From: a virus
Length of the DNA: 64,000 nucleotides
Reading direction: 5' to 3' (one strand)
Virus record (IMG/VR): IMGVR_UViG_3300010370_000027
The position numbers and the translations under genes were made by a program. Below, one piece after another: positions 3,643 to 61,300 of this stretch. Under the pieces are notes generated by a model. The model saw nothing but the letters and a program-made list of their open reading frames with translations. It ran no database searches and had not been told where the DNA came from. Positions within the stretch are counted from its first letter, which is position 1; each line of letters begins with the position of its first letter.

Positions 3643-3945
3643 TTACTTCTTAGACGAAGTCGCGGCTGCAAGAACCTTCTTGAGGGCTGAAACAGCCTCT
3701 TGCTGAGAGATGCCCTTTTGAGATGCAATCTTCACAACATCTTGAATGAAAGAGGCAAGTGAATCAGTCGTAGTTATCTGATCCATCGTGGAGACTAAAG
3801 CCTTGTTTTGAACAAGCTTGCCAGTAGCCTTCTCAGCAGCTGTGTTTCCCTTGATGTCTTTCCCGACATTTGCCGAGTCCTCCTCGGCAAGCGCAGAAAG
3901 TTCTTCTCTTACTAATTTGCGGAGGGTAGACTCAGTTATCTTCAT
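3643..3945 (-). CDS. Putative internal head protein with conserved leader
   Basis: N-terminus MKITESTLRKLVREELSALAEE. ATAATTA motif 6 nt upstream (3952-3958). Confidence 0.65.
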   Translation of the reverse strand: MKITESTLRKLVREELSALAEEDSANVGKDIKGNTAAEKATGKLVQNKALVSTMDQITTTDSLASFIQDVVKIASQKGISQQEAVSALKKVLAAATSSKK

Positions 3946-4462: not shown

Positions 4463-4492
4463 GACTATAAGTTCATGATCATACTTATGATC

Positions 4493-5155
4493 ATGAATGA
4501 TGCTAAACGATGGCGGACGCTAATCAAGCGCCTCGCGTATCTCAGGGCGGAAGCGTCTGAGGCGGTTGAGTCATTCGAAGAATCTGTTAGTGAGATAGAG
4601 TCAAGAATAGAAGAAAAAGAAAGGTCAGTCGTCATTGATCCAGACGACATCGTAGAAGGAAGCAAGATACCAGTCAACGAAACCTCCAAGCACATGACAA
4701 AATTCACGGGCAAGAGTGAAGAGAAGTCGTCTGGTGCAACAGAGACGAAGCAGGAATCAAAGATTGAGACTCCATCGATGGACGACAGCGGTGATGAAGT
4801 GAAGCACCACTACAAGCGCCTCTGGCGGGTCGTGGCAAAGCTTACACATCCTGACGCTGTAGGAAACAACGACGAGCTAATCACACTTTACAAAGCAGCC
4901 GCATCGGCGTACGAAAAGGACAGAAGAGACGAGCTCTTAGACGTGGCGTCTGAGGTGAACGCACAGTTAGAGAAGCCTCACCCAAAGATGTTTGAGGACC
5001 TCGACAAGAGGTGCAATCATTACGAGGCGATGTTAAGAAAGATAAGGGGTTCTGTGGCGTGGCAATGGAAGAACGCTCAAGAAGGAACGAAACAAGAGAT
5101 TATCGATCTGATTAAGTCAAAGAGGGAAGAAAAGGTAAAGCAAACCACTGAATAA
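4493..5155 (+). CDS. Protein with an internal DnaJ-type J-domain and N-terminal coiled coil
   Basis: YKRLWRVVAKLTHPD..LYKAAASAY is J-domain helix II, HPD and helix III. Start set at ATG 4493, 5 nt after ATACTTA (the ORF track starts at 4475). Confidence 0.75.
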   Translation: MNDAKRWRTLIKRLAYLRAEASEAVESFEESVSEIESRIEEKERSVVIDPDDIVEGSKIPVNETSKHMTKFTGKSEEKSSGATETKQESKIETPSMDDSGDEVKHHYKRLWRVVAKLTHPDAVGNNDELITLYKAAASAYEKDRRDELLDVASEVNAQLEKPHPKMFEDLDKRCNHYEAMLRKIRGSVAWQWKNAQEGTKQEIIDLIKSKREEKVKQTTE

Positions 5156-5185
5156 TTTTGTCTGTCGTGGAGATAATTAATCTTC

Positions 5186-5923
5186 ATGAATGAGAAGCTC
5201 TTAAAGAGATACGTTAGATCCATACTTCTAGAGATGTCTTACGAAGACGTCAAAACTTCTAAGGACCCGCTCGATTGGGTGGAAGCAGCTTTTCAAGATC
5301 CAGAAGAATGGAACACAAAAGATCCCTTCAGGGCAATGATAAGAGCTGCAAAAAGATTTGGTCTTGAAGAATTCGGAATGGGATCAAGCAGGTTCGTCTT
5401 CAACCTGAAAAACGGAAAAGTTCTAAAAATAGCAAGGAACAACAAAGGACTCGAGCAAAATAAGCTCGAAGCAGTAGCAGGTCGAGACCCACACGTTCAC
5501 TCTATTTTGGCTTCTGTTTATGATACTTCACCAGAATATGCGTGGCTCGTGGCTGAATTCGTAAATCCTCTCGAGGACGGAGAATATAAGGCTGCAGAAC
5601 GGGTGTGCGGAGTTGTATGGTCAGAAGTAAGACGCGTCCTCGGCTTGTCGAATAAATCTGAGATTGAATCGACAGTATCGCAGATAACAAAGAAGCTTGA
5701 GCCAGAAGAATCTCGAAACAGCAAGACAAAAGGTCAAACAGGATCAGACTGTCCAACAGGCAAAGAATTTCTCGAGAGTCTCGGAAGCTTCTTGGATCGA
5801 TATAGTGGAATGCTCACAGGAGACATCGAGAAGTTGTCGTCATGGGGAGTGAATGACAAAGGATGTCTCGTGTTACTAGATTACGGAATCACAAGAAAGA
5901 AGTTCGAAGAGCTTTATCGATAG
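5186..5923 (+). CDS. Protein kinase-like (PKL) fold enzyme
   Basis: Gly loop GMGSSRFVF, VLKIA lysine, QNKLE helix-C glutamate, hinge LVAEFV, catalytic loop GDIEKLSSWG and metal-binding LLDYG. ATAATTA lies 6 nt upstream. Confidence 0.75.
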   Translation: MNEKLLKRYVRSILLEMSYEDVKTSKDPLDWVEAAFQDPEEWNTKDPFRAMIRAAKRFGLEEFGMGSSRFVFNLKNGKVLKIARNNKGLEQNKLEAVAGRDPHVHSILASVYDTSPEYAWLVAEFVNPLEDGEYKAAERVCGVVWSEVRRVLGLSNKSEIESTVSQITKKLEPEESRNSKTKGQTGSDCPTGKEFLESLGSFLDRYSGMLTGDIEKLSSWGVNDKGCLVLLDYGITRKKFEELYR

Positions 5924-5982: not shown

Positions 5983-6018
5983 AAAAAGGAGGCCACCGAA
6001 AGGTGGCCTCCTTCTTTT
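5983..6018. terminator. Bidirectional intrinsic terminator between the kinase and major capsid genes
   Basis: 12-bp stem AAGGAGGCCACC-GAAA-GGTGGCCTCCTT flanked by an A tract and a T tract, between convergent genes. Confidence 0.92.
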
Positions 6019-6034
6019 CTCCTATGAGACGTTA

Positions 6035-7888
6035 TCAGATAACGTTCATGTCGAGGACGGTGACTGTTCCGTAGAAGTCCGAGCGAACGGTCTTCTTACC
6101 GTAGCGGGTCATGACGCCCTTGCGAGGTGTGAAGTCCTCAGGAGCGAAGATCGTCGGTGTGACGATGAGTGGGACGTATGGAGCGTAGACGTAGCCTGTC
6201 TCGAGGTAGCTGCCGCCCTTGTAGCCGACGAGGATCTTGTTACGTGAGAAGTAAGGATCCTTATAGACCGTGAAGCGGTTCGAGAGGGTACCGACTGCCT
6301 CTGCGCCGATGGTGAAGGGCGATCCGACCTGGCCCTCGCCGTCGAGCGAGAACTTAGGCTTGTAGAGGACCGAGGCCTCGAGGATTGTGCAAACGTCTGG
6401 TCCTGTGACGAGGAAGTTTGCCGATCCGCGGAGCGTCTTGCGGTGGATGGTGTTCGCGACGTCGATGATCGTCTCGATGAGTGTCTCGTACCACTCGCGA
6501 ACTGTACCTGTGAACTGTGGTCCGATCTGGTACACGTCTGTGAGTGCCTGGCGAGCGCCTGTCACCTTGTTAACGAAGCGACCTGGCGAGCGGCTCCAGT
6601 AGTAGTTGGCGCCGTTGGCCTGCGACACGAGGTCGTTGAGGATCTCGCGGTCGATTTCGAGGGCGATCTGCTCCGAGAGGATCGATGTGAGCTCGACTTC
6701 AGCGTCCATCGAGTGATAGGCGTTGAGGTCCTGTGCGAGTTCCGGCGACCACTTGGCGCGGAGCTTACGGGTCTCAGCTGTGATGCTGATGGCCTCGATC
6801 TTGATGTCGATCTCAGGGATCACTGGGGCTGGTGTTGCACCGAAGTCCGACTCGAACGAGGGGACTGTGACTGTGGCGCCGCTGTTTCCGTCGACCGAGA
6901 GGGCTGACGAGAGCGAGTACGAAACTGTACCAGCTGCAGCACCGGCTGAAAGAGCTGCACCGTTGGCGCCCTTGACGACCGTGAGGACGTGTGTGCCGTT
7001 GAGTGCGTCTGGGGTGAAGACCGAACCGCTCCAGTTACCGCGCTTGTTGAGGCGACGGAGGTTGAGGACTCCATTGCCACCCTGATATGTCTCTCCCCAA
7101 GCTGTCGCATTTGTGACACCAGCGAAGAGAGCGAGCTGGTTGACAGCAAGCTTGTCCATGTTCGAAAGACCGCTAATATCGACGATTGCGAAGGCCATGT
7201 CGAGGTCGTTGTTTGCGAGAGCGTTCTCGACCTGACCGTCGAACTCGGCGAAGCGAGCGTTCGATCCCGAGAACATTGCAGCAGAAGAAACTTCGAGGTT
7301 AGCTGCCCAGGTGTCGCCGTTGACTCCGCCCCAAGCACCGACCGTGAAGGTGAGGCCTGTTGCAGAACCTGTCACGCGGCTGTAGCCTGTGTTGACGAGG
7401 TCGTACATACCACCGGTGGCGAGCGATCCGCTCTGGACGCCTTTGCCGGTCGGGTTGTTGTAGAGCGACTGTCCGCGTGTGTATGTCGAACCTGTCTCAC
7501 CAGCTGGTGTTCCGACGTTCGAACCGTAGGTGTAGTCGAGATAGAAGATGAGTCCCGATGGGAGGCTCATTGGCTGGATCGAGACGAGCTCGTTGGCAAC
7601 GAGACCGCCGAAGACTCTGCGAACGATCGGGAAGGCGATGTTCGAGAAGCCCTGGATCTGACCCGAACCGGCGAGGTTTCCACCGCCGCTCGAGAGAGCG
7701 TTGCTCTCCTTGAGGACCTGAGCTGCCTGGTTCTCGAGGAGCTGGGCCATAACCTCGCGGCGTGTGCCGTCGAGGCCACGGAGGAGTCCTGTGCGGCTCC
7801 ACTTCTCTGTAAGACGTGCGCGCTCGGCTCCGACGTGCTTCTCGCGGATGCCCTGAGCGAGTTGTTCAAGACTAAAGTGCTTTGACAT
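6035..7888 (-). CDS. gp23: Major capsid protein, T4 gp23-like
   Basis: Motifs LVSIQPMSLPSGLIFYLDY, TRKLRAKWSPELAQDLNAYHSMDAEVEL, EIDREI, YAPYVPL, FTPRKGVMTRY. AGGAG SD and strong codon bias. Confidence 0.97.
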   Translation of the reverse strand: MSKHFSLEQLAQGIREKHVGAERARLTEKWSRTGLLRGLDGTRREVMAQLLENQAAQVLKESNALSSGGGNLAGSGQIQGFSNIAFPIVRRVFGGLVANELVSIQPMSLPSGLIFYLDYTYGSNVGTPAGETGSTYTRGQSLYNNPTGKGVQSGSLATGGMYDLVNTGYSRVTGSATGLTFTVGAWGGVNGDTWAANLEVSSAAMFSGSNARFAEFDGQVENALANNDLDMAFAIVDISGLSNMDKLAVNQLALFAGVTNATAWGETYQGGNGVLNLRRLNKRGNWSGSVFTPDALNGTHVLTVVKGANGAALSAGAAAGTVSYSLSSALSVDGNSGATVTVPSFESDFGATPAPVIPEIDIKIEAISITAETRKLRAKWSPELAQDLNAYHSMDAEVELTSILSEQIALEIDREILNDLVSQANGANYYWSRSPGRFVNKVTGARQALTDVYQIGPQFTGTVREWYETLIETIIDVANTIHRKTLRGSANFLVTGPDVCTILEASVLYKPKFSLDGEGQVGSPFTIGAEAVGTLSNRFTVYKDPYFSRNKILVGYKGGSYLETGYVYAPYVPLIVTPTIFAPEDFTPRKGVMTRYGKKTVRSDFYGTVTVLDMNVI

Positions 7889-7932: not shown

Positions 7933-9921
7933 TTACTTGATTATTCCCGCCAAACGTGCCCAACGGTCAGACTCAAATCCCTCGTTGAGAGTATTGGTTG
8001 CCGATGCAGGACGTGCTGGGCGAGATGCTGAACCTATGACGCCACGATCGGTCGACTCCGTGATCTTCGTTGTCGATGCCGAGAGTGTCTTCACGAGGCT
8101 CTCATACACGAGCTTCACTTCACGCTCAGACTTAGCCTCGTCGAGTCTCTCTATGATTTCAGCCTTCTGGCGTTTTGTGAGTGACTCATTCTGGAGGAGC
8201 TTGTTTGTGAAGAGCAACTTCGCGTTGAACAGATTCGTTTCTGCCAACTTATTGCGGAGATCAGTCTCTGCCGCGGACGACTTCGGAGCGCCATTGAGGG
8301 CCTCTCCCTTGCGGGTTGCCTCTGCGAGCATACCCTTGAGCTTGTTGCAGCGAGCAACAGACTCGTTAAACTTGGTTGCGAAGAAGTTGTAGGCCTCCTG
8401 CATCTTCTTAGCCTGCTTCTTAGCCTGCTGCTTCTCCTGCATCTTCTTAGCCTGGGAAGCCTTCTTCTGGGCTTCCATCTGCTTCTTCTTGGCCTGCGTA
8501 GCCTTCTTCTTGGCTTCCGTCTGAAGATTTGCCTCTGCAGCGAGCTTTCGCTTGATCGATTCTACAGGCATATCAGGCTGAACATTTGGCTGCATAACCT
8601 TGGGATCATGTCCTGGGTGGGAGCGACGCTTCTCAGATTGATCCATGCCACCGTAGGCTTGATCCATCTCTGACTCATCCATCTCAGCTTCGTCTTGCTC
8701 GTCCATTTCTTCTGCCTCTGACCAAGCCTGATCAAGTTCGTCGAGTTCTTCCTGAGCGTCTTGCTCGTCCATCTTCTTGTCGTCAGAATCCTCTTCGGAC
8801 TCTGTGGTTAGCTCGACGTCAGTGAAGGGATCACCAAGATCGTCGTCTTCAAAATCATCAGAAACTTCGCCTGGACCGTGGCCCTTTTCAGCATTCTTTG
8901 GCATATCAGTCGCCTCGCGGATCGACTTCATGCGTGCAATCTCACGACGGAGCATTCCCTCGTCTATTTCAACGATTGTGTCGTCGCTGAGAGTCTTCGA
9001 CTCGAGAGCAAACGATTCTTCCTGTGTCTCTTCTTCATCACCGCCGAGATCAAGGTCGGCATCTTCTGACTCATCAGAACTTTCGTCTCCGAGGTCAAGC
9101 TCTTCGCCGCCCTCGTCGCCACCTGCTTCTTCAGCTTCGGCGCCGGACTCCTCACCCTCTTCGTCACCTGTGATAAGATCAACGCCGAGAGATTCGAGAT
9201 CCAGATCATCGGGCATGCCCGTGAGCTTTAATGTTACGTCTGCTTCTGAAAGTGTTTTGTGGTTTTTCTTCATTTTCTGCTCCGTGAGCTGCTTGAGGGT
9301 TGAATAATAATTTTCAAGAATCGACTCATAAGAGCTCTTCTTGGGGCAATCCTGCAGGTTATTCTGCAAGTACGAATACGTATCCTCTACTTCAGCAACA
9401 ATTGAAGAAAGTACGTCTTCAAAACCTTTAGATTCTCTAACAAGCTTTCCAGTCTTGCTGACTAAATCAATTTTCTTGTTGAGACCTTCCATCTTGACGT
9501 CGAAATTCGAATCACCAGATGAAGCCATTAAAACTCCGAGAGAATTAGCAGATTCTAGACTAAGCTCATACTCATTTCCGCAGCCATCGTCAGCCTTGAG
9601 TGCATCTAAGTCGAGAGTAACCTTTCCTTCCTCATCAGGAAGAGACATTGCTACCGCAGAAGAAGCTGCGTCTCCTACCTGAGGAGCTGCGGTGACAGGT
9701 GCAGTCTCAAAAGAATCAGGAGAAACAAGCGTGTTTTCGTCCTTTAAAATGTCTTCTGGGTCTGCTTCCATCTCTCCGAGCTCGCCGAGCAGTTGATTCT
9801 CGATGAGATCTCTTATTCGAGGTGTAACTGCCTCAAGAAGTGCTCTTTTTGCGTTATCTTCAGCTACTTCCTTCAGCTTCTTCACGTCTGCTAAGGCTTC
9901 TTCGTACAATTGCTTAGTCAT
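7933..9921 (-). CDS. Prohead core/scaffolding protein
   Basis: Directly upstream of the capsid gene. Acidic tracts, coiled coils, many L/I-x-E sites and C-terminus DRWARLAGIIK. Confidence 0.8.
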   Translation of the reverse strand: MTKQLYEEALADVKKLKEVAEDNAKRALLEAVTPRIRDLIENQLLGELGEMEADPEDILKDENTLVSPDSFETAPVTAAPQVGDAASSAVAMSLPDEEGKVTLDLDALKADDGCGNEYELSLESANSLGVLMASSGDSNFDVKMEGLNKKIDLVSKTGKLVRESKGFEDVLSSIVAEVEDTYSYLQNNLQDCPKKSSYESILENYYSTLKQLTEQKMKKNHKTLSEADVTLKLTGMPDDLDLESLGVDLITGDEEGEESGAEAEEAGGDEGGEELDLGDESSDESEDADLDLGGDEEETQEESFALESKTLSDDTIVEIDEGMLRREIARMKSIREATDMPKNAEKGHGPGEVSDDFEDDDLGDPFTDVELTTESEEDSDDKKMDEQDAQEELDELDQAWSEAEEMDEQDEAEMDESEMDQAYGGMDQSEKRRSHPGHDPKVMQPNVQPDMPVESIKRKLAAEANLQTEAKKKATQAKKKQMEAQKKASQAKKMQEKQQAKKQAKKMQEAYNFFATKFNESVARCNKLKGMLAEATRKGEALNGAPKSSAAETDLRNKLAETNLFNAKLLFTNKLLQNESLTKRQKAEIIERLDEAKSEREVKLVYESLVKTLSASTTKITESTDRGVIGSASRPARPASATNTLNEGFESDRWARLAGIIK
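8395..8517. repeat. Tandem QAKK-type coding repeats in the scaffold
   Basis: ctcctgcatcttcttagcctg occurs at 8395-8415 and 8434-8454, with further degenerate units. Confidence 0.75.
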
Positions 9922-10553: not shown

Positions 10554-10799
10554 TTAAATCTTCTTCGAAAGACGCTTCTTCGTCTCTTCGATCTTCGCGA
10601 GACGACGACGAAGACGAGTCTCCTCGATCTTAAGCGCCTTCATAAAATCAATGTGCTTCGCTGCAACCTTTTCGCTTCCGACCTCGTCAGCGTCGACCTC
10701 TTCTGTGTCTTTTGCTCGTTCTTCTGTCGACTCCATGTCGCCGAACTTGGCAACTTCCTCTTCAATGATTCTACGAAGTAACTGGCTTGTAAGTTTCAT
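10554..10799 (-). CDS. Small head-associated protein with conserved leader
   Basis: MKLTSQLLRRIIEEEV from ATG 10799 with a GAGAGG SD. ATACTTA at 10826-10832. Confidence 0.75.
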   Translation of the reverse strand: MKLTSQLLRRIIEEEVAKFGDMESTEERAKDTEEVDADEVGSEKVAAKHIDFMKALKIEETRLRRRLAKIEETKKRLSKKI

Positions 10800-10849
10800 A
10801 TCAAAAAATCCTCTCACTTAAACGGTAAGTATATTCAAGAAGAAAAAAT

Positions 10850-11275
10850 TTACTTTTTTAGAGGTGAATCCATGAAAGCAAGTGATGCCCACTTGGATGT
10901 TACATCATCTCCAAAAAGGTCTTCCGGGTTTGCCCTGGCGACGACCTGTTCAACTAATCCCCCACCTGCTGCTGCAGGAACGGGTGATTTTCCGTCGTTC
11001 TGCAAAAATGCAGGAAGTGTAGAAGCTGCAGTATCTGCAAAGATGTCTTCCATCACTTTATTTCCTCCTGCCTCTCTCCTTATTGTCTCTTTTAAACTAG
11101 GAGAAAACATCTTTTGAGGAGGTGGTTGCCTTCTAAGATTGTCTGAAAGAGGCGCGCTTGGCTGACGATTCACAACACTTTTTGGAGAGTCAGCATTTAA
11201 ACCCAGGCCTTCACCCAATATTTCAACAAGGCATTCTTTGACAATAGATTTTAATTCAGATTTTGTGATCTTCAT
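10850..11275 (-). CDS. Head-associated protein with conserved leader
   Basis: MKITKSELKSIVKECLVEILGE. C-terminal SKWASLAF resembles the scaffold end DRWARLAG. Confidence 0.75.
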   Translation of the reverse strand: MKITKSELKSIVKECLVEILGEGLGLNADSPKSVVNRQPSAPLSDNLRRQPPPQKMFSPSLKETIRREAGGNKVMEDIFADTAASTLPAFLQNDGKSPVPAAAGGGLVEQVVARANPEDLFGDDVTSKWASLAFMDSPLKK

Positions 11276-11287
11276 CCCGTTCAACCT

Positions 11288-11899
11288 TTACTTCTTTAAT
11301 GTCAAAATATCGTTAACAATTCTATCAATTCTATCCGACTTATTGAATATGTTTCTTAATTCATTCGAATTAATGGTCCTACCCTCAGGAAGCATAAATG
11401 CTCCGGGCGTAGAAGGCTCTGAAACGTAGTCCCAACAGATTAGCTGGAAGTCATCTTGAACGATGTGATAGTCACCTTGCTTCTTGACTGATCCTACACC
11501 TCGCGAGGAGATTCCGAGCTTGACTCCGCTCTCGACGAGGGACTGAAGTATCTTGCCAGAAGGTGTATCCAATAGCTCCACAGTACCATAAACCACCCCT
11601 CGATCCAGGTATGCTTCCTTAATGACGTGAGACACGTTCTTGAGGTTGACCACGGATGAGTCCGGGTGGTCCAACTCACCGAGAGCGCGGTTCTCAGCGA
11701 TGAACTTCTGATAGTTACGGACTTCACGCTCGAGAACAGCCATCGGGTAGATGCGACCGTTCTGGTTGAGTGTGTCGGCCTTCTGAAGGATTCCCTTCAT
11801 CATGACCTTACCGTTGTTCTTCTCCCGCGACTCCTTGATCATTTCAGGAGTGTAGTCGAAGACTTCGTATGAATTGAGTAGCTTGAGGTCTTGTGCCAT
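11288..11899 (-). CDS. gp21: Prohead core protease, T4 gp21-like
   Basis: NQNGRIYP, GELDHP (His), GISSRGVGS (Ser), WDYVSEPS (Asp). The AAGGAG SD supports ATG 11899. Confidence 0.95.
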   Translation of the reverse strand: MAQDLKLLNSYEVFDYTPEMIKESREKNNGKVMMKGILQKADTLNQNGRIYPMAVLEREVRNYQKFIAENRALGELDHPDSSVVNLKNVSHVIKEAYLDRGVVYGTVELLDTPSGKILQSLVESGVKLGISSRGVGSVKKQGDYHIVQDDFQLICWDYVSEPSTPGAFMLPEGRTINSNELRNIFNKSDRIDRIVNDILTLKK

Positions 11900-38936: not shown

Positions 38937-39206
38937 ATGAGTAACAATCAACAAAAAATAAAGTTAAATGTGTTGCAAGATAATAAGTGCTACGAAGCAG
39001 TTGAAAAAAGCACATGTGCATGTGAAAGAAAGTCATGCAAACAGTGGATCGATTTCCCGCAAGGTAAAAATTGCACACTAATAACGACTCAAGCCGGACC
39101 TTTAACCCTAAGTGAAATAGGAAAGATCTACGGCCTGACGAGAATGCGTATTTGCCAGATAGAAAAGAACATCTATCAGAAGATTAGAAGTTTTATTCAG
39201 TGCTAA
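38937..39206 (+). CDS. Cys-rich protein with stand-alone sigma70 region-4-like HTH
   Basis: LTLSEIGKIYGLTRMRICQIE resembles RpoD region 4.2 (TLEEVG..F.VTRERIRQIE). N-terminal C..CAC..C..W..NC cluster. Confidence 0.8.
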   Translation: MSNNQQKIKLNVLQDNKCYEAVEKSTCACERKSCKQWIDFPQGKNCTLITTQAGPLTLSEIGKIYGLTRMRICQIEKNIYQKIRSFIQC

Positions 39207-39490
39207 CTGATTGGATCTTCTTCTTTTTTCTTCTTTGGGAAAGGCTTCTTCTTGCTGGAAGAAGTCTTCTCTTCAGATGCCAAAGGAGTTGTTTCAGTGT
39301 TTTCTTCTAGAGATTCAGGAATACTCTTTGCTGTCTCAGAAAGAATAAAATCTTCACTTGTCTTAACTGGGACATTTTCAGACTTTTCAGAAAGAAAGGC
39401 GGCAGGTTTTTCCACCGCCTTTCTTTTCTTTTTAGAATCCTCTCGAAGTTTTTTTGCTACAACTCTTCGAAGTAATTCAACATGTCTCAT
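39203..39490 (-). CDS. Lys/Glu/Ser-rich hypothetical protein
   Basis: ATG 39490 lies 1 nt after the stop of the Hc1-like gene. Confidence 0.6.
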   Translation of the reverse strand: MRHVELLRRVVAKKLREDSKKKRKAVEKPAAFLSEKSENVPVKTSEDFILSETAKSIPESLEENTETTPLASEEKTSSSKKKPFPKKKKEEDPIS

Positions 39491-44759: not shown

Positions 44760-46667
44760 ATGAATTTTAAAGATCAGATCTTTATAAATCCAAATAAACT
44801 AATCAGAGATGATACAGAAGTAGTATTTGTAGCTGATCTATTTGAAGAAGATTACGCTGGTGGTGCAGAGATGACATCGGAAGCGATAATTCAAAGATCA
44901 CCCTACAAGATTCAAAAGATCTACGCAAAAGATGTCAATCTTTCAGTATTGAATCAAGGACTTAAAAAGTTCTGGTTATTTGGTAACTTTTCTCAAATGA
45001 ACCCAGAGCTAATTCCAAGCATCGTTGCAAATCTCAAATATTCTATTCTTGAGTACGACTACAAGTATTGTAAGTTTAGATCTCCCGAGAAACATCAGGT
45101 TTCTACAGGACTTCTTTGCGACTGTCACAATCAGATGAATGGAAAACTGATATCAGCTTTCTACTACGGCGCTCAGTCTATGTGGTGGATGTCAGAGAAG
45201 CAAAAAGAAAGATATCACACTCTTTTTCCTTTTCTTGCTGAAAAAGACAACATCGTTTTATCTTCTGTATTCTCCAGAAAAACTCTTGGAATTCTTAAAC
45301 TTTTGAGAGAGACTATCAAAGAAGATGAACGTAATGGTTGGATTGTTTTGGGATCTCAGTCGTGGGTAAAAGGATTTGAGGCAGCAAAGACTTGGTGTGA
45401 AGAAAATAAGAAAAACTATGAAATAGTTTGGGATGTTCCTTATGAACAGCTCTTGGCAAAAATGGCTGCGGCAGAAGGATTTGTCTACTTGCCTTCAGGC
45501 GGAGACACATGTCCAAGAATGGTCATAGAAGCAAAACTTTTGGGATGCAAACTTCATATTAATGAAAACGTTCAGCACAAAGATGAAACATGGTTTGCAA
45601 CAGATGATTTGGATTCGATCGAAGAGTACCTAAGTGTATCACCAGATCTTTTCTGGAAAGCGATAACTAAAATTATGAACAAGAAGCCTACGATTAGTGG
45701 TTACATCACTACTTATAACTGTGAAAAGCAGGGATACCCATACGAGCAATCTATCAAATCCATGCTTGGATTTTGTGACGAAGTTTGTGTTGTAGACGGC
45801 GGTAGCACTGACGGAACTCTAGAAAATCTCGAGAAGATCTCCAGACAAGATCCTCGTCTAAAAGTAAAAAAGGTACAAAGAGACTGGTCTCACCCAAGAC
45901 ATGCTGTTTTTGACGGTATGCAGAAGGCAGAAGCAAGATCTATGTGCACGTCTGAATTTTGCTGGCAGATGGACTCTGACGAAGTTGTTCACGAAGAAGA
46001 TTATCAAAAGATTGTAGACCTCTGTAGCAAATTCCCCGCCAATGTAGAAATTCTTTCACTTCCAGTCATAGAATACTGGGGAGGACCAGAAAAGGTTCGA
46101 GCAGACATTCAGCCCTGGAAATGGAGACTGAGTAGAAATCTTCCTCATATCACGCACGGAATACCCTCACACTTGAGGAGAGAAGATAAACTAGGTGTTT
46201 ATGCTTTGCAAGGTACCGATGGCTGTGACATGATTCACAAGGTAACCGGAGAAATTATCAATCATTTGACTTTTCATACGGAGGAGTCAGAAAGAGTAAG
46301 AATTGCTGCTGTCTCTGGAAATTTGGAGGCAATCTCTGTTTATCAAGACTGGTTCAACAGAGTTGTTGAAAATATACCTGGTGTTCATCACTATTCTTGG
46401 TATAACATGTCAAGAAAAATGAGACTCTATAGAGACTACTGGACACGTCATTGGAATTCTCTTTTTAATGGTTCTCTTGAAGACACATCTTCAACGAATA
46501 TGATGTTTGACGTGCCTTGGTCAGAAGTCACCGAAGAAATGATAGAAGAAAGAGCAAAATTACTCACTGAAAAAACAGGCGGATGGATTTGGCATAGAAA
46601 GTGGGATGGTCGATCAACACCACACATTGTTGTAAAAAAGACGCAACCAAAGATAATGTCAAGCTAG
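44760..46667 (+). CDS. Bifunctional glycosyltransferase (GT-B/GT4 fused to GT-A/GT2)
   Basis: N-half KGF..DTCPRMVIEAKLLGC. C-half ISGYITTYN..VVDGGSTDGT..QMDSDE. Confidence 0.88.
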   Translation: MNFKDQIFINPNKLIRDDTEVVFVADLFEEDYAGGAEMTSEAIIQRSPYKIQKIYAKDVNLSVLNQGLKKFWLFGNFSQMNPELIPSIVANLKYSILEYDYKYCKFRSPEKHQVSTGLLCDCHNQMNGKLISAFYYGAQSMWWMSEKQKERYHTLFPFLAEKDNIVLSSVFSRKTLGILKLLRETIKEDERNGWIVLGSQSWVKGFEAAKTWCEENKKNYEIVWDVPYEQLLAKMAAAEGFVYLPSGGDTCPRMVIEAKLLGCKLHINENVQHKDETWFATDDLDSIEEYLSVSPDLFWKAITKIMNKKPTISGYITTYNCEKQGYPYEQSIKSMLGFCDEVCVVDGGSTDGTLENLEKISRQDPRLKVKKVQRDWSHPRHAVFDGMQKAEARSMCTSEFCWQMDSDEVVHEEDYQKIVDLCSKFPANVEILSLPVIEYWGGPEKVRADIQPWKWRLSRNLPHITHGIPSHLRREDKLGVYALQGTDGCDMIHKVTGEIINHLTFHTEESERVRIAAVSGNLEAISVYQDWFNRVVENIPGVHHYSWYNMSRKMRLYRDYWTRHWNSLFNGSLEDTSSTNMMFDVPWSEVTEEMIEERAKLLTEKTGGWIWHRKWDGRSTPHIVVKKTQPKIMSS

Positions 46668-46682
46668 AAAGTCTAAAAAGAA

Positions 46683-47396
46683 ATGAAGATTATCGACATA
46701 AGAAAAAAGCTGATTGATCTAGGGACTTCTGTAGAGAATGTTGCTCTAGGAGATTTCGATATAATTGGAAGATTTACTGCTGAAAGAAGTAGAGGTCAAG
46801 AAAGTGAGCTCTATAGAAAAGTCGGTGCTTTCTATAGATCAAATTACGAGAGAGGAATTCTAATAAGCGAGCTTATCAAGAAATACAAGATAGAGTCAAT
46901 GCTTGAGATAGGATTCGGAAGAGGATATTCAACTTTTTGCGCAGCAAAAGCTTTTAGCGATGCGGGAATAAAGGGAAGAATTGTAACGGTTGACCCTAAC
47001 TTCGATGAGAATCACATAAGAAACTTACAGTCTGTATTCCCTTCAAGCTGGTTTGATTGCATTACTTTCATGAAGGGTACTTCCACTCAAGCACTCCCGC
47101 AAATCAATGAGAAATTTGATCTTGTCTATATCGATGGAGATCATTCGTATGAAGGGACTAAATTTGACTGGGAGATGACTAAGGACAAGTGGAACAAGTG
47201 CATATTGTTCGACGACTATCATATGCCCACAAAAAATGATCCCGGCATACAATGCAGAGATCTAATAGACAGTATTGAAGATGCTACAAAAGAGCTGATC
47301 ATAATGGATAGAAGAATATTCTTCGACGACCGAAGAATACCGGACGATCAAGTCGATTATGGTCAAGTTTTGATGACAAAACCGGAGCTACTATGA
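46683..47396 (+). CDS. Class I SAM methyltransferase (Methyltransf_24-like)
   Basis: MLEIGFGRGYS, FDLVYIDGDHSYEG, LFDDY. Confidence 0.88.
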   Translation: MKIIDIRKKLIDLGTSVENVALGDFDIIGRFTAERSRGQESELYRKVGAFYRSNYERGILISELIKKYKIESMLEIGFGRGYSTFCAAKAFSDAGIKGRIVTVDPNFDENHIRNLQSVFPSSWFDCITFMKGTSTQALPQINEKFDLVYIDGDHSYEGTKFDWEMTKDKWNKCILFDDYHMPTKNDPGIQCRDLIDSIEDATKELIIMDRRIFFDDRRIPDDQVDYGQVLMTKPELL

Positions 47397-48118
47397 AGTC
47401 TAACAACTTCGTTTTTGTAGCACCGATGTTCAATGCATCGGAAACTCTACCTAGAATGATGCACTCCTTGTATGGTCAGTCTTACGATAACTGGAGATTG
47501 GTACTAATAGATGATGTATCTAACAAGGATCATAGCGAAGCTGCAAAAGAAACAGTCAGAAAATTCGAAGAATTAAAACCAGGTAAAACAACAGCCATTT
47601 GGAACGACACTAAAGAATGGGAAGTCTCTAATGTTCTAAAAGGAATATCGATGTGTAATGATGAAGACATAGTCTGCAGAATAGATGCGGATGATTGGCT
47701 TACAGACTTAGACGGTCTTGCTATCATCAATTACACTTACGAGAACACAAAGTGTGACATTGCCTGGACTGCACATCGATGGAGTTTTTCAGATAAGAAC
47801 ATTAGCGGACCAATGTCAAATGATGCAGATCCTTATTCTCACCCGTGGGTATCAAGTCATCTAAAAACATTTAGAAAGAAACTTTTAAGAGACGTTAAGG
47901 ACGAAAACTTTAGGGGCGAAGACGGAAATTACATAAGGCGAGCAGGTGATCAGGCAATTTATTTGCCCGCCTTAAGAAATTCTAGCAATAGAGTTTTTAT
48001 TCCAAGAGTAATGTATCACTACACGATTAAAGACGTTCCTGAAACTTATCAGACTGATGATGCAAGGTTTCAAAGAGACGAAGCTGTCTTCCTAAGAAGC
48101 AGAGGCTACGTAGAATGA
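47393..48118 (+). CDS. GT2 glycosyltransferase
   Basis: PMFNA..SLYGQSY..LIDDVS..RIDADDWL. Confidence 0.9.
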   Translation: MKSNNFVFVAPMFNASETLPRMMHSLYGQSYDNWRLVLIDDVSNKDHSEAAKETVRKFEELKPGKTTAIWNDTKEWEVSNVLKGISMCNDEDIVCRIDADDWLTDLDGLAIINYTYENTKCDIAWTAHRWSFSDKNISGPMSNDADPYSHPWVSSHLKTFRKKLLRDVKDENFRGEDGNYIRRAGDQAIYLPALRNSSNRVFIPRVMYHYTIKDVPETYQTDDARFQRDEAVFLRSRGYVE

Positions 48119-49020
48119 AAGTCTACATAAACAGAAAGCCTGTTGTTGGTCCATGGGGAGGTGGAAATATGTGGGTACAATCTATGTACAGCATTCTTCC
48201 AAGCCTTGGAATATCTCTTGTAGAGATATCGGAATCACCAGATGTTATTTTAATCGCAGGAATAGGCAGAGAAGGCAACTGTATATCAGCTGATGAAGCG
48301 ATTAGATACAAAGAAATGTCAGCATCTCATGGAAGAAACGTAAGACTTGTCATGAGGGTAAACGAGAATGACGCAAGAAAATCTACTACAGGTGTAGATG
48401 ATTCAATAAGAAGAATTGCAAGACATTGTGATCACGTAGTTTTCGTTTCCAGATGGCTATACGATTACTTTCAAGCAGAAAGCCTGGGTGAAAAAGCCTC
48501 CTATATCTACAACGGTGTCGACAGTCAAATCTATAGAGAATCACCAAAATTACAGAATGAAAAGATAAACATTGTGACACATCACTGGTCCGACAATGTT
48601 ATGAAAGGATTTGACATCTATGATTTAATAGATGAGTGGACTTTAAAGAATCAGGACTTTACTTTCACATACATCGGCAGAGAAAGAGGAACTTTCAAGA
48701 ATGCTAAAGTTGTAAAGCCTTTATTTGGAAAAGAGCTAGGAGAAGAACTTGGTAAATACGATGTTTATGTATCTGCTTCAAGATTTGATCCTGGTCCCAA
48801 TCACATCATAGAATCTATATCTTGCGGATTACCAACTTATGTTCACAAAGATGGCGGTGGATGCGTGGAATTTGCAGGTCAAGATCACGTATACCAAGAC
48901 GTCAATCAGCTATTAAACATCTTGTCAAGCAAATCATATTCTAAGAACACTTGTTGGCTACCTAAGAATTGGGAAGCTTGTGTAAAAAGTTTCTATGAAG
49001 TTTTAAAGAAAGTGAATTGA
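48115..49020 (+). CDS. GT4-like glycosyltransferase
   Basis: PWGGG, VFVS, YNGVD, KGFD, DPGPNHIIESISCGLP. Confidence 0.88.
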   Translation: MKVYINRKPVVGPWGGGNMWVQSMYSILPSLGISLVEISESPDVILIAGIGREGNCISADEAIRYKEMSASHGRNVRLVMRVNENDARKSTTGVDDSIRRIARHCDHVVFVSRWLYDYFQAESLGEKASYIYNGVDSQIYRESPKLQNEKINIVTHHWSDNVMKGFDIYDLIDEWTLKNQDFTFTYIGRERGTFKNAKVVKPLFGKELGEELGKYDVYVSASRFDPGPNHIIESISCGLPTYVHKDGGGCVEFAGQDHVYQDVNQLLNILSSKSYSKNTCWLPKNWEACVKSFYEVLKKVN

Positions 49021-49377
49021 ATGAAAAGCATACACGAAGCAGTTACTAAACTTTTAAATGATAGACTTCAAAGAAGGCTAGAGCAGAAATTTGATAAGTC
49101 TACGTGTATGGAAATTTATGGAGACATTTTTTACACCATATCTGAACTTGTCAAAGAGACACAAACTCCACTTAGCAATGAATCGGTCAATCTTCTTTCT
49201 CAGATGTATTATGACAGCGTAACAGTTAACGGAAACCAGGAGTTAGATCCCTCAATCTTCACGAAGCGAGCAACAACGACTGAAATACCGACAAAAGAGT
49301 TGGCTTTGTTGGCAACTATGATGAATGGAACGGTATTCGGTGATGTGTTCATTTCTGCTGTCAAGAGAAGATCATGA
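49021..49377 (+). CDS. Hypothetical protein in the glycosylation island
   Basis: Abuts both neighbouring genes. No motif recognised. Confidence 0.7.
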   Translation: MKSIHEAVTKLLNDRLQRRLEQKFDKSTCMEIYGDIFYTISELVKETQTPLSNESVNLLSQMYYDSVTVNGNQELDPSIFTKRATTTEIPTKELALLATMMNGTVFGDVFISAVKRRS

Positions 49378-50306
49378 AAATACATCTAGACAATGTTAAC
49401 TTAAGCTCTAGATCAGGTCCTAATTCATTTGCAAAAAGATTTTCTGAAAAAGTGATTGAGCTGGGTCATGAAATCACTTTTTCTGGTAAAGATGCTGATA
49501 TTTCTCTGGTTTTTATAGAAAAATCAGGAAGACCGCTTGCACCGAAAGTAGTACAGCGGATAGATGGTATTTGGTTTGCTCCTAATCAATTTTATACCAA
49601 CAACACGGGTATAAAATCAACATACCAGTCCGCTGATTACGTGGTATGGCAATCAGAATTTGATAAAAGTATGATTACTAAGTGGTGGGGGATTCCTAAG
49701 CTAGGATCAGTGATAAGGAATGGATGTCCACAGCCAAAAAGCTTTAGTCAAGAGACTGAAAATGCCATAAAAAATCTAAGAGAAAGACATGAAAAAATTT
49801 TTGTGTCTTCTGCTAACTGGCATCCTCAAAAAAGGTTAAAAAGCAATATAGAGCTTTTTAACTACATCAAGAATAACTTTCACAAGAATTCTTGTCTCGT
49901 GATAATGGGATCTTTAGATGGAAGACTTAATGAAAAAGACGTGTATGTTACAGGAAACATACCGCATGATGTCTGTATGCAAATATTCAAAGAATCAGAC
50001 TGGATGATTCATCTTGGTTGGTTGGATCATTGCCCCAATACAGTTGTCGAAGCACTATCTGTAAGAACACCAGTCATATGCTCCGAAGACGGAGGCACAA
50101 AAGAACTTCTTGGAAGTTTTGGAATAGTCTTAAAAGAAAATATTCCTTACGAATATCAGCTTACGGATTACGATAATCCACCAGATTTAGACGTTACTCA
50201 GCTAAAATATCTTCCTGAAAAGAAAGACCTTACTTACGACATAGACGTCTCTATTGAATCTTGTGTCAACAAGTATCTAGACATATTTGAAAGACTATTG
50301 AAATGA
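49374..50306 (+). CDS. GT4-like glycosyltransferase
   Basis: SGPNSF, QRIDG, IRNG, KRL, DHCPNTVVEALSVRTPVI...GGTKE. Confidence 0.88.
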   Translation: MKIHLDNVNLSSRSGPNSFAKRFSEKVIELGHEITFSGKDADISLVFIEKSGRPLAPKVVQRIDGIWFAPNQFYTNNTGIKSTYQSADYVVWQSEFDKSMITKWWGIPKLGSVIRNGCPQPKSFSQETENAIKNLRERHEKIFVSSANWHPQKRLKSNIELFNYIKNNFHKNSCLVIMGSLDGRLNEKDVYVTGNIPHDVCMQIFKESDWMIHLGWLDHCPNTVVEALSVRTPVICSEDGGTKELLGSFGIVLKENIPYEYQLTDYDNPPDLDVTQLKYLPEKKDLTYDIDVSIESCVNKYLDIFERLLK

Positions 50307-51232
50307 TCTACTACGTTTTTAAAGACTCTCAAAAAGATTACACGTGTAAATCAAGCGGATCAGATTTGATATCTACGTTTGAAAAAAACGGATGCATAGC
50401 ACTTACTGAATCAAATTTTCTTAATAGCAATTTCAATCCATCAGATGAAGACGTAGTAGTCGTCTATATCTCAGTAGAATCTCAAAAGAGTCTAGAGAAA
50501 CTTAAGTCTTTAAACTGTGTAAAAGTTTTACATTCAATAGACGAAAGCAAAAGTGATGCAATTCTGTACAGAACTCAGCTAAAATTTCTAGAAGAAGTAG
50601 GATCTAACACTATCATAAATGCTTATCCCTCTAAGAGAAATTTAGATTTCTTATCGTCTAAAGGGCTGGAAGTTATTACTCTACCGCTTTGTGGATCTAA
50701 AAGAATGGTAGACATATCAAACAAAGATATCGATGTGCTTGTTTCGGGCCAAATGGATGCGTCTTATTATCCAACAAGAACTAAGATTCTAAGTGCATTG
50801 AGCAAGTCGGATGTAAAATTTGCCTATCTACCTCACTCAGGTATGGAAGCTTCAAAAGCAACACACCAGTATCATGGAGAAAAATTTCTAGAACTGCTAG
50901 ATAGATGCTGGCTGGGCGTAACTTGCAAAGCAGGAAATTTTAGAGACAGATTAGTTGCCAAATATGTTGAGTTTGGATTTTCGAAAGTTTTGCCCGTGGG
51001 AGATGTACCCACTTACATGGACAAGAGAATGTCAGAGAGTATGCTATCAATAGAAGAAAGCGACTCAGAAGAAAAAATAATAAGCAAAATAAAAGAATGT
51101 CTAAGCAACAAAGAAAGCCTCATCAGAAGAATAGAGACATATTCATCAGCAACTGAAGAGATCCATGACATGGAAGAAAATGTTAGAAGAGTTGTACATC
51201 TTCTGCAGAAGTTAAAGACGAATACAAAGTAG
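50303..51232 (+). CDS. GT-B (Glyco_trans_1_2/CgeB-like) glycosyltransferase
   Basis: KDIDVLVSG..YPTR..KYVEFG pattern plus island context. Confidence 0.6.
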   Translation: MIYYVFKDSQKDYTCKSSGSDLISTFEKNGCIALTESNFLNSNFNPSDEDVVVVYISVESQKSLEKLKSLNCVKVLHSIDESKSDAILYRTQLKFLEEVGSNTIINAYPSKRNLDFLSSKGLEVITLPLCGSKRMVDISNKDIDVLVSGQMDASYYPTRTKILSALSKSDVKFAYLPHSGMEASKATHQYHGEKFLELLDRCWLGVTCKAGNFRDRLVAKYVEFGFSKVLPVGDVPTYMDKRMSESMLSIEESDSEEKIISKIKECLSNKESLIRRIETYSSATEEIHDMEENVRRVVHLLQKLKTNTK

Positions 51233-51256
51233 AAGATTGTTAATATAGTTACTTTT

Positions 51257-52156
51257 ATGCCCAAAGTCTATGTTCTTCCACCAGGAGAGGGATGGATAGT
51301 TGATAGAATGGTCAAGGAGTGGACCGAAGACAATGCTGATATGTGTGTAGACAACCCACATAATGCAGATGTTATTTGGCTTTTAGCAGATTGGTGCTGG
51401 AGGAACGTTCCACCTTCCATTTTATCCACTAAGAAAGTAATAACGACAGTTCATCATATAGTTCCCGAAAAGTTTGGGGAAAAAGAAAAAGATGATTTCG
51501 CTTTAAGAGATAGCATTACTACTGTTTATCACGTCTATAATCAGTCTACTTTAGACTTCATAAGACCGCTTACTAGCAAACCAATACACCTGATACCCTA
51601 CTGGGCTAATCAGAAAATTTGGAAAAAAACAGAAGATAGATTAAGCCTAAGAGTAAAATATAATTTACCTGCTGGCGCTTACCTGGTTGGATCTTTTCAA
51701 AGAGATACAGAAGGTCATGATTTAAAAAGCCCAAAGCTAGAAAAGGGACCTGATATTCTAGCTGACTACTTGGAGAAACTATTCCTTAAAAGGAAAGATT
51801 TGTTTGTAGTTTTAGCGGGCTGGAGAAGACAATACGTCATATCCCGCCTGGAGAAGGCAGGAATTCCTTATGCTTATTTTGAAAGACCACCCCACGACAC
51901 AATAAATGACTTATATCAGTGTCTTGATCTATATCCAGTTACTGCAAGAACAGAGGGCGGACCTCAATCGTTAATAGAATGTGGCCTTCTTGATATTCCT
52001 GTAATATCAAGAAATGTCGGAATTGCAAGCCAAGTTTTACCTTTGGACTCAATAAACGACAACATATCTGAGGCAATACCAAACATACCGGATGTATCTT
52101 CCTGGAAATTGCCAGAAGGTTATGTTCAATATAGAAGATTAATTTCTAATTTGTGA
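51257..52156 (+). CDS. GT4-like glycosyltransferase
   Basis: EKGPD, EGGPQSLIECGLLDIPVIS.NVG. ATAGTTA 5 nt upstream. Confidence 0.88.
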   Translation: MPKVYVLPPGEGWIVDRMVKEWTEDNADMCVDNPHNADVIWLLADWCWRNVPPSILSTKKVITTVHHIVPEKFGEKEKDDFALRDSITTVYHVYNQSTLDFIRPLTSKPIHLIPYWANQKIWKKTEDRLSLRVKYNLPAGAYLVGSFQRDTEGHDLKSPKLEKGPDILADYLEKLFLKRKDLFVVLAGWRRQYVISRLEKAGIPYAYFERPPHDTINDLYQCLDLYPVTARTEGGPQSLIECGLLDIPVISRNVGIASQVLPLDSINDNISEAIPNIPDVSSWKLPEGYVQYRRLISNL

Positions 52157-52162
52157 GAAAAA

Positions 52163-53272
52163 ATGAACGTATTAATTTTTCCAACAAGCGATCGTCTCGG
52201 CCTTGCGTCAGCTATTGCTCACTACAACAAGCTTGGACATAAAGTACACGTACCAAAGCATGGAACGCTAGGTCTGGACTGGTCTACAGGAGCACAGTGG
52301 CCAGCTCTTTTGTGTCTTGATCCTGACTCGGGAAAGAGAAATTTGGAGCTTCATGGTCTTCGTAAAGAAGGTGCTTTTTTTGGAGAAGATGCTTTCATAG
52401 AAGTGCAAAATATACCCACATCTAAAGATGTTCCATTAGTAAGAATTTGCTCTGAAGAAGAAATAGCAGACACAGAAATTAACATCTATCACACGTTACG
52501 TGGAGGCGAAAATCATCTACTTCACTACAAGAGCCTAATGGAGAAAAAGAAGGCTGTCTGGGTATCCTCAACGGTTAATGCCTGGGAAGACAAACCAGGA
52601 GGTCTATCGCCTAGAAACGTTGCAAAAATATTGCCTGCTCGCTATGAAAGTACAAAATATGAAAATTCTTTCAATATGTGGTGTCTAGACATAGAATATG
52701 ACTTGTTTTCTCTCAGCAAAGAAGAACAAAATCGTCAAAAATGCTTTGCATCTTTTAATCATAATTTTCATGTTAGACAGCCCGATGACTACGATCTTTT
52801 TTGCAAGATGAACGAGATTTTATCAAAGAAAGGCATTCAAAAAGTTACCAATTACGGAGGCAACATAAGAGCGATGGGCGCTGATATTCGCTATAGCAAC
52901 GGAGGCCCCGTAGGTAACTATGAAACGCTTTCTCCCATAGAGACAATTAAGAAATACAAGACTTTAACTGGAGTGGTACATTTTAAACAGACAGACTGGG
53001 GCGGTGGAGTATTCTTTCACTCACTTTTTAGTCATACTCCCGTAGTCACAACCAGGAGATACGTTGAGAAATCTAATTCTGGGAAGTATCTTGTTGACGG
53101 CGTAAATAGCATTCATATTAGCTCTCCAGAAGAAGCTGCAAATTCAATAGAAAGACTTCTAGATGAGAAAGAATTTTCAAAGCTTTCGGCAGGAATGAAA
53201 GACATGAAGAATAGTCTCATAAATGAAGCTTACTGGGAAGGATGGAGATCTTTCTTGGAGAAGGTGTCGTGA
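52163..53272 (+). CDS. Divergent GT-B-like protein
   Basis: DWGGG....SL..HTPVV..LVDGVNS resembles a GT4 C-terminal region. Confidence 0.55.
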   Translation: MNVLIFPTSDRLGLASAIAHYNKLGHKVHVPKHGTLGLDWSTGAQWPALLCLDPDSGKRNLELHGLRKEGAFFGEDAFIEVQNIPTSKDVPLVRICSEEEIADTEINIYHTLRGGENHLLHYKSLMEKKKAVWVSSTVNAWEDKPGGLSPRNVAKILPARYESTKYENSFNMWCLDIEYDLFSLSKEEQNRQKCFASFNHNFHVRQPDDYDLFCKMNEILSKKGIQKVTNYGGNIRAMGADIRYSNGGPVGNYETLSPIETIKKYKTLTGVVHFKQTDWGGGVFFHSLFSHTPVVTTRRYVEKSNSGKYLVDGVNSIHISSPEEAANSIERLLDEKEFSKLSAGMKDMKNSLINEAYWEGWRSFLEKVS

Positions 53273-54099
53273 AAGAAGTACCAAAGAACACTCTTTTCGT
53301 ATTGGTAACTTGCTCTCGAGATAAAATTCGAGATGAAATAGCTGAAAAAGTTGTCAATTCCATACAAGATCTACCAAAAGACAGAGTAATCGCTTTTGAT
53401 AATTCTTCAGTTTACCAAAACACTAAAGAGAAATTAAAAAGCCTGACTAAAAATTCCTTCTTCTCTTCTACGAATTATGGATTTTGGACTGCAGTAGACT
53501 GGTGCTTGCAAAATTATGAGTCTATACTGAAAAGTAAGCTAGATTACGTCTATGTCATAGAGTCGGACGCAATACACTTCCCAGGATACGTAGAGTCAAT
53601 CGTTGAATGCGAAAAATATTTAGAAAATAATGCCGACGTAGGATCCATTAGACTGCAAGAGTTTTCAGTAAAAGAAAAGCATCTATACGACAAAAACTTT
53701 CCCACGCAAGACTCAAGAAAATGGGCGTGGATGAGACAGTCAAACCATTTCACTAATCAGAAAGCTTACTTTGAGAGACCTGAAGGAAGCATCTACAGAA
53801 CAAATTTGTCACCTCAAGTTTGTTCATTGAACAGAATAAGTTTTATGGAAAATGCTTTCTGTGAACTCAGAAAAATGGGAAAATTTACAGAAATTGACTT
53901 TCAAGAACAATACTTTAAGTTTTATAAAGAGTCAGCCGTATATGACGGAGGCATCTTTAACACAAAAGAATCTTTCGAGTCAGATACACTTACAGGCAGC
54001 TGGAGTGACAAGAACAAGCTTCAGCAACACGGATATAAAATGACTAGAGAAGACTCTATTCAGGCTGTTAACGAAGAAAATTTCGTGAACGTCGGATAG
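53269..54099 (+). CDS. Divergent GT-A-like glycosyltransferase
   Basis: FDNSS, NYGF..A, YVIESD. GTGA overlap start (the ORF track begins at 53242). Confidence 0.55.
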   Translation: MKEVPKNTLFVLVTCSRDKIRDEIAEKVVNSIQDLPKDRVIAFDNSSVYQNTKEKLKSLTKNSFFSSTNYGFWTAVDWCLQNYESILKSKLDYVYVIESDAIHFPGYVESIVECEKYLENNADVGSIRLQEFSVKEKHLYDKNFPTQDSRKWAWMRQSNHFTNQKAYFERPEGSIYRTNLSPQVCSLNRISFMENAFCELRKMGKFTEIDFQEQYFKFYKESAVYDGGIFNTKESFESDTLTGSWSDKNKLQQHGYKMTREDSIQAVNEENFVNVG

Positions 54100-54121
54100 A
54101 AATAGTTTATACTTAGACAAA

Positions 54122-56295: not shown

Positions 56296-57095
56296 TAATA
56301 AACGTACATGCTACTGTCAGTAGTTTTTCAGTTCCCTTCTATGAATACATGAGGGAAAACTATTTGAATATGGCGACAAAGCATGCAATTTCTTTCTATT
56401 GCTATTGTCTTGACAACGAAAGCTATAATTCAGTATCAAATACTTCAACTCCCGTAAGAGTTCCTGACGGAAGTGGAACTACTGGTCATTGCAATGCTGT
56501 TAGAGTGGCATTGGGTAATTTTGAAAAAACAGACCCAGATTCAATCGATATTATTGCCGATACTGATACTGCAATGCTAGTAAAAGGCTGGGATGAGACA
56601 ACAGTCGATATCTTGAAAAATGTCGGAGTTTTTGGAAGCTCTTACGAAAGAATAGGCGGAAGATGCTCTGGTTCTGGTACTGTACAGACATATAAAGACA
56701 AACCTTCATTTACATGGTTTGCTGCTTCGAAAAAATACAGTTTTTCTAGCATGGATGTAACTCCTGCAAAAGGAAACAATTTACAGATTTCAAATTCAGA
56801 GCTTTCAGAGCTTTACAACCTACCGGTTGGATATGAATTGCTAAGGGATACTGGCTGGCAGATACCCTCTTACTTAAATGATAATCAGATACCTTACAAG
56901 ATACTAGTTCAAGAAAAGCCAACAGACAATGCAAAGGTTTTAAGAACTGGTGACAACTACCACGAGGAGTATCAGCTTGACGGTGTTCCTTTTTTGGCTC
57001 ATCAAAGAGGATCTCTTTCTAAAGCATATAGACAGCACGAGCTATCTAAAAAGTTCTATAACTGCTTAGACGAGTACTTTAAAAATCTTGTGTAA
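56292..57095 (+). CDS. Putative glycosyltransferase-like protein
   Basis: IADTD (DxD) and RDTG motifs plus island context. Confidence 0.5.
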   Translation: MIINVHATVSSFSVPFYEYMRENYLNMATKHAISFYCYCLDNESYNSVSNTSTPVRVPDGSGTTGHCNAVRVALGNFEKTDPDSIDIIADTDTAMLVKGWDETTVDILKNVGVFGSSYERIGGRCSGSGTVQTYKDKPSFTWFAASKKYSFSSMDVTPAKGNNLQISNSELSELYNLPVGYELLRDTGWQIPSYLNDNQIPYKILVQEKPTDNAKVLRTGDNYHEEYQLDGVPFLAHQRGSLSKAYRQHELSKKFYNCLDEYFKNLV

Positions 57096-57100
57096 GATAA

Positions 57101-61265: not shown

Positions 61266-61291
61266 ACTATGTGAATCTGACATGTTAGTAT
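61262..61291 (+). promoter_or_regulatory. Sigma70-like promoter TTGAAC-18-TAGTAT
   Basis: Same architecture as at 3600 and 20658. Confidence 0.55.
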
Positions 61292-61300
61292 CACATTAAC

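Follow-up and report, generated by a model that had tools for sequence, protein, structure and literature searches.

A predicted capsid-targeted minimal kinase beside the head operon of an uncultured T4-like freshwater phage

The internal proteins IPI-III and the Alt protein of phage T4 are targeted to the capsid by an N-terminal propeptide (CTS) that is cut by gp21 (PMC5694885, PMC9958956, PMC3012670), and prohead proteases of the T4 type cleave after glutamate (PMC5694885). The Kinase-PolyVal domain (PF18762) comprises the truncated kinases of phage polyvalent proteins, for which injection has been proposed (Iyer et al. 2017, PMC5512222). The T7 gp0.7 kinase disarms defences but needs to be expressed first, and the kinases of phages Munch and G17 have been termed its 'jumbophage homologues' (PMC13645617). 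A depleted C-lobe is also found in SteC, OspG and NleH, effectors that are active and delivered into the target cell, and SteC indicates that a kinase can be active with a minimal C-lobe (PMC13395416).

The sequence analysed here (the window, 64,000 nucleotides) belongs to an uncultured freshwater T4-like phage and contains a kinase-like open reading frame of 245 aa at 5186-5923 (+). Our main reading, which we give a probability of about 0.48, is that the product would be a late-made, capsid-targeted, protease-trimmed and injected cargo kinase, similar to T4 Alt but transferring phosphate, with host proteins as its substrate. As in T4, a gp21-type protease is encoded within a head module of T4-like make-up, and a short N-terminal segment ending hydrophobic-x-Glu is common to unrelated late proteins; by analogy with Alt, the likely cargo is a protein-modifying enzyme. 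The window differs from T4 in that the segment is a 16-residue amphipathic helix of different sequence rather than a 10-residue signal, the late box is ATANTTA where T4 has TATAAATA, and the putative cargo has a kinase fold instead of being an ADP-ribosyltransferase. By eye, the terminal hydrophobic-x-Glu is all that this leader and the T4 CTS have in common, the homolog in phage XacN1 being closer to T4.

Organization of the kinase locus

The head operon facing the kinase gene is T4-like in content, with genes for gp23, a probable scaffold, a protease of the gp21 type, the portal and the terminase. The initial annotation had described the kinase and capsid genes as convergent, and this was borne out: gp23 on the complementary strand faces the kinase gene, with a terminator between them. 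The features of the region are as follows.

3643-3945 (-): 100-aa protein with a kinase-type leader; ATANTTA 6 nt before its start
4481-5155 (+): gene 5' of the kinase, headed by a separate ATANTTA box (4481-4487); by eye, an HPD motif like that of J domains
5173-5179 (+): ATANTTA box (ATAATTA), putative phage late promoter; 6-nt spacer, ATG at 5186
5186-5233 (+): leader, residues 1-16, amphipathic, with L-L-E at its end; putative propeptide for capsid targeting, putatively cut after E16 by a gp21-type protease
5234-5923 (+): minimal PKL domain; about 26 kDa if the leader is trimmed off
5983-6016 (called on both strands): two-way intrinsic terminator, common to the kinase gene and the capsid operon
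6035-7888 (-): major capsid protein gp23, converging with the kinase gene
7933-9921 (-): probable scaffold of the prohead, with many (L/I/V)-x-E sites; scaffold role suggested by its position
10554-11275 (-): two small genes, for leader-bearing products of 81 and 141 aa, flanked by those for protease and scaffold
11288-11899 (-): gp21-type prohead protease (phrog_207, E 6.5e-51), the presumed leader-cutting enzyme

The two small genes at 10554-11275 are candidates for prohead core proteins and are kept in the relatives L001, L003 and G001. Upstream of the kinase gene, the HPD-motif gene probably starts at 4493, six codons after the start given by the ORF caller (4475), and in locus L123 the homolog likewise begins at the corresponding Met, 6 nt after a box. 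A Pfam search with the encoded protein (about 220 aa, 4493-5155, +) gave no match. This gene may be co-transcribed with the kinase gene. A gene for a DenV-like pyrimidine-dimer glycosylase (PF03013; 3995-4462, +) lies directly 5' of these two box-preceded genes, with no terminator called between. Since the kinase gene is not separated by a terminator from the two genes upstream of it, transcripts from an earlier promoter may read through into it.

The window also contains a phage-encoded gene for a tmRNA, whose tag peptide is complete (1998-2377, -). The DNA of the window is present in freshwater, reservoir and estuary metagenomes, and a protein 93% identical to the kinase is located on a 313-kb contig. 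RNA contigs from two metatranscriptomes covered the capsid and scaffold genes and not the kinase gene; such contigs cannot rank genes, and a gap in them is uninformative.

The late-promoter-like box and the leader

A late promoter ahead of the kinase had been proposed from ATAATTA, 6 nt and ATG, and this arrangement was confirmed. In the window, 9 of the 19 ATANTTA sites fall 0-40 nt before a called sense-strand start, compared with 2% of positions, and a tenth is 5 nt before the probable true start at 4493; because intergenic DNA is AT-rich, the p-value for this placement is optimistic. In the 211-kb relative G001 the box precedes 51 of 292 genes (shuffles gave a mean of 27 and a maximum of 40), and its distance peaks at 5-9 nt before the ATG. 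Among its carriers there are the genes for both tail sheaths and for the tail tube, as well as those that open head operons, while helicase, thymidylate synthase and dUTPase are among the genes that are free of it; ribonucleotide reductase and homing endonucleases are exceptions, being box-preceded as well. An unbiased k-mer search 5' of leader-bearing genes ranked TA-N-TTA first (59/87 vs 159/920). The same relative (loci L091-L101) also encodes a PurZ-like member of the adenylosuccinate synthetase family (phrog_1211), GroEL and an NAD synthetase.

A sigma-70 reading of the box was rejected, as there is no sigma-70 call at the site and the base before ATA is not enriched in T. ATANTTA is a real phage-specific motif, and a late promoter is the best reading of it on sequence grounds. 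Late expression of the kinase, as first proposed, is favoured by the comparative statistics on box and leader and is very likely. A phage sigma factor would transcribe the gene from this box, and the 6-nt spacing would imply a leaderless or near-leaderless mRNA. A gp55-like gene is present in the complete relative G007 (E 6.7e-8; host sigmas also match weakly), and a gp55 profile search of the incomplete relatives, whose genomes are partial, gave no match. Elsewhere in the window, a long run of apparent sugar-modifying genes extends from 44760 to 62116 (+), and two of them have the box 5-6 nt before the ATG (51245 and 54109), which suggests late glycosylation.

The leader-like N-terminal helix ending LLE that was noted initially is present in the structural model, where residues 3-15 are helical and L-L-E16 forms the end. 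Residues 5-15 make up a strongly amphipathic helix, and the leader has a hydrophobic moment in the top 2%. Close relatives having the leader all retain E16 (32/32), with L, I or V at position -2; the cleavage rule of gp21 is (I/L)-x-E. A leader profile made from kinases only found 17 non-kinase genes in the 211-kb relative where about 3 were expected, and the box stands before 12 of these 17 compared with 42 of the 274 other genes (p=1.6e-6); the coupling recurs among non-kinase genes of 80 further loci (24/40 vs 124/586), although, since the loci are related, such p-values overstate independence. Genes picked by the DNA box alone have the N-terminal consensus L-x3-I-x-E. These comparisons favour a cleavable leader common to other proteins, cleavage itself being putative. 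A further small gene of the window (39203-39490, -) also scores for the leader and has no ATANTTA box within 45 nt.

In gp23, the propeptide helix (residues 41-52) likewise ends L-L-E, and its leader score of 8.2 exceeds the 99.9% point of the null. The density of (L/I/V)-x-E in the scaffold is 3.5 vs 1.7 per 100 aa, and an internal scaffold helix at about residues 319-336 (window about 8914-8967, -) is conserved in 59 scaffolds, where the rest of the acidic region that holds it is variable. By eye this helix resembles the leader, and it may be part of the core-assembly surface.

The type of leader tracks the phage and not the kinase. In the cultured Alishewanella phage Slickus01 the homolog is the last of nine tandem genes with another common L-x-E leader, and one of the nine encodes an ART-PolyVal enzyme (loci L085 12-5609 and L088 6302-7267). 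ORF170 of XacN1 starts with a T4-like 12-residue segment ending L-S-E. The members in RaK2 and CBB have no leader, and phAPEC6 gp500c, from the RaK2-type leaderless group, was not among 62 virion proteins. Fusion members keep an internal leader before the kinase; in locus L206 (1415-2578, P0025-P0027), for example, an AAA_33-like P-loop domain is followed by an internal leader and then by the kinase. By extension from T4, the 16-residue leader would bring the kinase into the prohead core, a gp21-type protease would cut after E16, and the 26-kDa enzyme would stay in the head and enter the next cell with the DNA. From these sequence features, packaging of the kinase in the head has a somewhat better than even chance of being correct.

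Fold and active site

An AF2 model built from 142 sequences (pLDDT 88, pTM 0.81) has the bilobal architecture of the PKL superfamily, with a five-stranded N-lobe, helix C, and catalytic and metal-binding loops. Searches with Foldseek and VIA-align returned almost exclusively kinase-fold chains, the best being ULK4 (Z 9.1, rmsd 3.4, 131 aligned), in agreement with the compact PKL fold of the initial annotation. SAICAR synthetase (Z 8.1), APH (7.8), the tRNA kinase ArkI (7.4) and Rio were all within about 2 Z of the best, NleH1 matched at Z 6.5, and T7-type kinases were among the nearest viral fold matches. The modelled fold is PKL, and the model does not separate protein kinases from SAICAR synthetase, APH, Rio and ArkI (Z 7.4-9.1). 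By sequence, Pfam searches with the protein and 141 relatives found no kinase match (no Pkinase) and one weak AceK match only, PADLOC gave no match, and solved structures returned the N-lobe of SteC only, weakly (E 0.015).

All of the motifs named beforehand are present (G64-x-G66-S-S-R69, K81, E95, G212-D213 and D232-Y-G). A helical N-extension is followed by the Gly loop (64-69), K81, helix-C E95, a disordered insert at about 170-190, the catalytic loop D213-x5-S219-W-G, D232-Y-G and a last short helix. The chain stops 13 residues after D232, and subdomains VIII-XI (activation segment and helices F-I) are absent; this early end of the C-lobe, after DYG and one short helix, had been overlooked. 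As assigned by sequence and secondary structure in the family alignment, K81, E95 and D232 are found in 142/142 sequences and D213 in 141/142, and this catalytic set of K, E, D and D is kept down to 26% identity.

The catalytic-loop Asn had been called non-canonical. It is indeed absent, but this is not a quirk of one copy, as Ser or His is the family norm: the site is His in 72, Ser in 56, Gln in 6 and Asn in 5 of 140 relatives (Ser or His in 128/140). S219 is its equivalent, because the homologs of Slickus01 and XacN1 retain Asn there, and it lies six residues after D213, not the canonical five, because the loop has one extra residue. Five residues separate the Asp from the Asn site in 131/140 relatives, and DYG is present in 128/140. 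Judged from the relatives, the unusual loop is of long standing in the family. We know of no citable tested precedent for a replaced Mg-binding Asn. The dN/dS ratio against two close relatives is 0.09-0.15, indicating purifying selection and ruling out a dead gene. Catalytic activity is likely, as far as can be predicted from conservation.

As in Kinase-PolyVal, the whole C-terminal subdomain is lost and the active site is kept, one member is fused to ART-PolyVal and another to a GNAT domain, and the protein is close to Kinase-PolyVal in Atlas features (0.93). The family is distinct from Kinase-PolyVal in that 0/142 members match PF18762 at E 0.01, that Gly precedes D213 where PF18762 has a His and an insert between His and Asp, and that members are mostly stand-alone with a short leader. 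With T7 gp0.7 the protein has in common that it is a phage-encoded reduced kinase, but it has DYG instead of DPV, no shutoff domain, and a late box and leader where gp0.7 is expressed early; T7K itself has no sequence match to it (probability 0.2%). SteC, OspG and NleH likewise have a depleted C-lobe, but they are secreted by bacteria into eukaryotic cells, and the window protein is shorter still after DYG.

Distribution, alternative readings and significance

The protein matches PHROG 4301, which has no assigned function (E 2.8e-16, residues 37-239), and the branch of the window differs from phrog_4301 by Ser at the Asn site and by the helical leader. There are 1,604 relatives among 50%-identity clusters. 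Cultured carriers are XacN1, Xoo-sp13, two Alishewanella phages, RaK2-like and Asteriusvirus jumbo phages, CBB and RM378. At about 25% identity the family reaches proteins of Munch, G17 and RaK2, with those of Munch and G17 at its edge; PA5oct, Atu_ph07 and PTm1 have no member. Larger architectures include kinase with ART-PolyVal (L060 5944-9873), GNAT with kinase and DUF5661 (L072 2135-3772), and a multidomain member of 1,788 aa with no Pfam match (L077 5944-11310).

In the closest relatives the kinase adjoins the capsid operon. A family member is found no more than 4 kb downstream of gp23 in 3/42 loci, and none is found in a complete 298-kb relative (gp23 81% identical) with the same profile that does find the RM378 and CBB members. 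In locus L123 the kinase slot holds an unrelated 251-aa protein with the same leader (8507-9259, -). This patchy distribution is the pattern of exchangeable cargo, and the gene is accessory. The L123 slot protein has ADP-ribosyltransferase-like motifs by eye and Atlas features of 0.85-0.88, with no Pfam match and a model pLDDT of 37, and is a lead only. In many related loci (L001 11030-11896; many of L123-L193) a TnsA-like or homing endonuclease gene directly follows gp23, before the kinase slot; the phage of the window has no such gene after gp23.

According to the main reading, the delivered enzyme would use ATP to phosphorylate its substrates, most likely proteins of the host, conditioning the cell before phage gene expression. 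If the enzyme is active, a protein substrate is reasonably probable, and specificity is probably loose because the substrate-selecting C-lobe is missing. Defence proteins are conceivable targets by analogy with the T7 kinase (PMC13645617). In an enzyme that is equally packaged and injected, the substrate could instead be RNA or a small molecule such as a nucleotide signal, in the manner of ArkI, APH and SAICAR synthetase. The fold scores of these three tie with those of protein kinases, the peptide-binding subdomains are missing, and ArkI is also a reduced PKL enzyme with an altered catalytic loop (PMC9095486). However, ArkI binds tRNA by a basic surface while the mature window protein is acidic (pI about 5), and T7-type protein kinases are among the nearest viral folds. 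APH binds its substrate with a large C-lobe insert that the window protein lacks. Overall, a packaged enzyme with a non-protein substrate appears rather improbable. The pseudokinase alternative, in which the protein would bind ATP or a partner as a decoy or inhibitor and transfer no phosphate, draws on the replacement of Asn by Ser or His in 128/140 relatives and on the missing activation segment and later C-lobe helices; with the catalytic K, E, D and D maintained in the set of 142 sequences even at 26% identity, and with sister members that keep Asn in the same frame, we consider it very unlikely.

A different question is whether the kinase leaves the cell in which it is made. It could be produced late and remain unpackaged, acting in the producing cell on superinfection, lysis timing or the tuning of host or phage proteins, with the leader as a docking or turnover helix. 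The leader-box coupling demonstrates shared late expression only, and the leaderless RaK2-like relatives indicate that the enzyme is useful untagged, but the invariant terminal (L/I/V)-x-E, the matching gp23 propeptide helix and the cargo-like tandem run of Slickus01 fit prohead processing better, and we regard an unpackaged kinase as unlikely. It could also be packaged and act inside the prohead on virion proteins, without delivery, as the head-type leader and the adjoining capsid operon in the closest relatives would allow. Absence from the complete close relative and presence at only 3/42 gp23 loci rule out a core role in head maturation and leave the prohead-acting kinase as the most improbable of these alternatives.

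Enzyme cargo that is targeted to the capsid has a precedent in T4, and the injection of truncated kinases was predicted in 2017; new here are an uncharacterised family whose catalytic loop is Asn-free, a leader and promoter unlike those of T4, and cultured carriers. We are aware of no phage protein kinase whose delivery by the virion has been demonstrated. It is doubtful, although conceivable, that the window represents a very large family of stand-alone, capsid-tagged, Asn-free kinases in T4-related environmental phages, which would phosphorylate host proteins, including defence proteins, at DNA entry. The main reading is directly testable in cultured leader-bearing carriers (Slickus01 WGH49852 and XacN1 ORF170), with RaK2 gp356, phAPEC6 gp500c and CBB_444/445 as natural leaderless controls. 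Because this large family of 1,604 clusters at 50% identity is unannotated and has an unusual active site, many phage genes would gain a function from one assay. If the main reading is true, a kinase that arrives ready-made with the genome would be at work sooner than the T7 kinase and would extend the principle of T4 Alt to phosphorylation.
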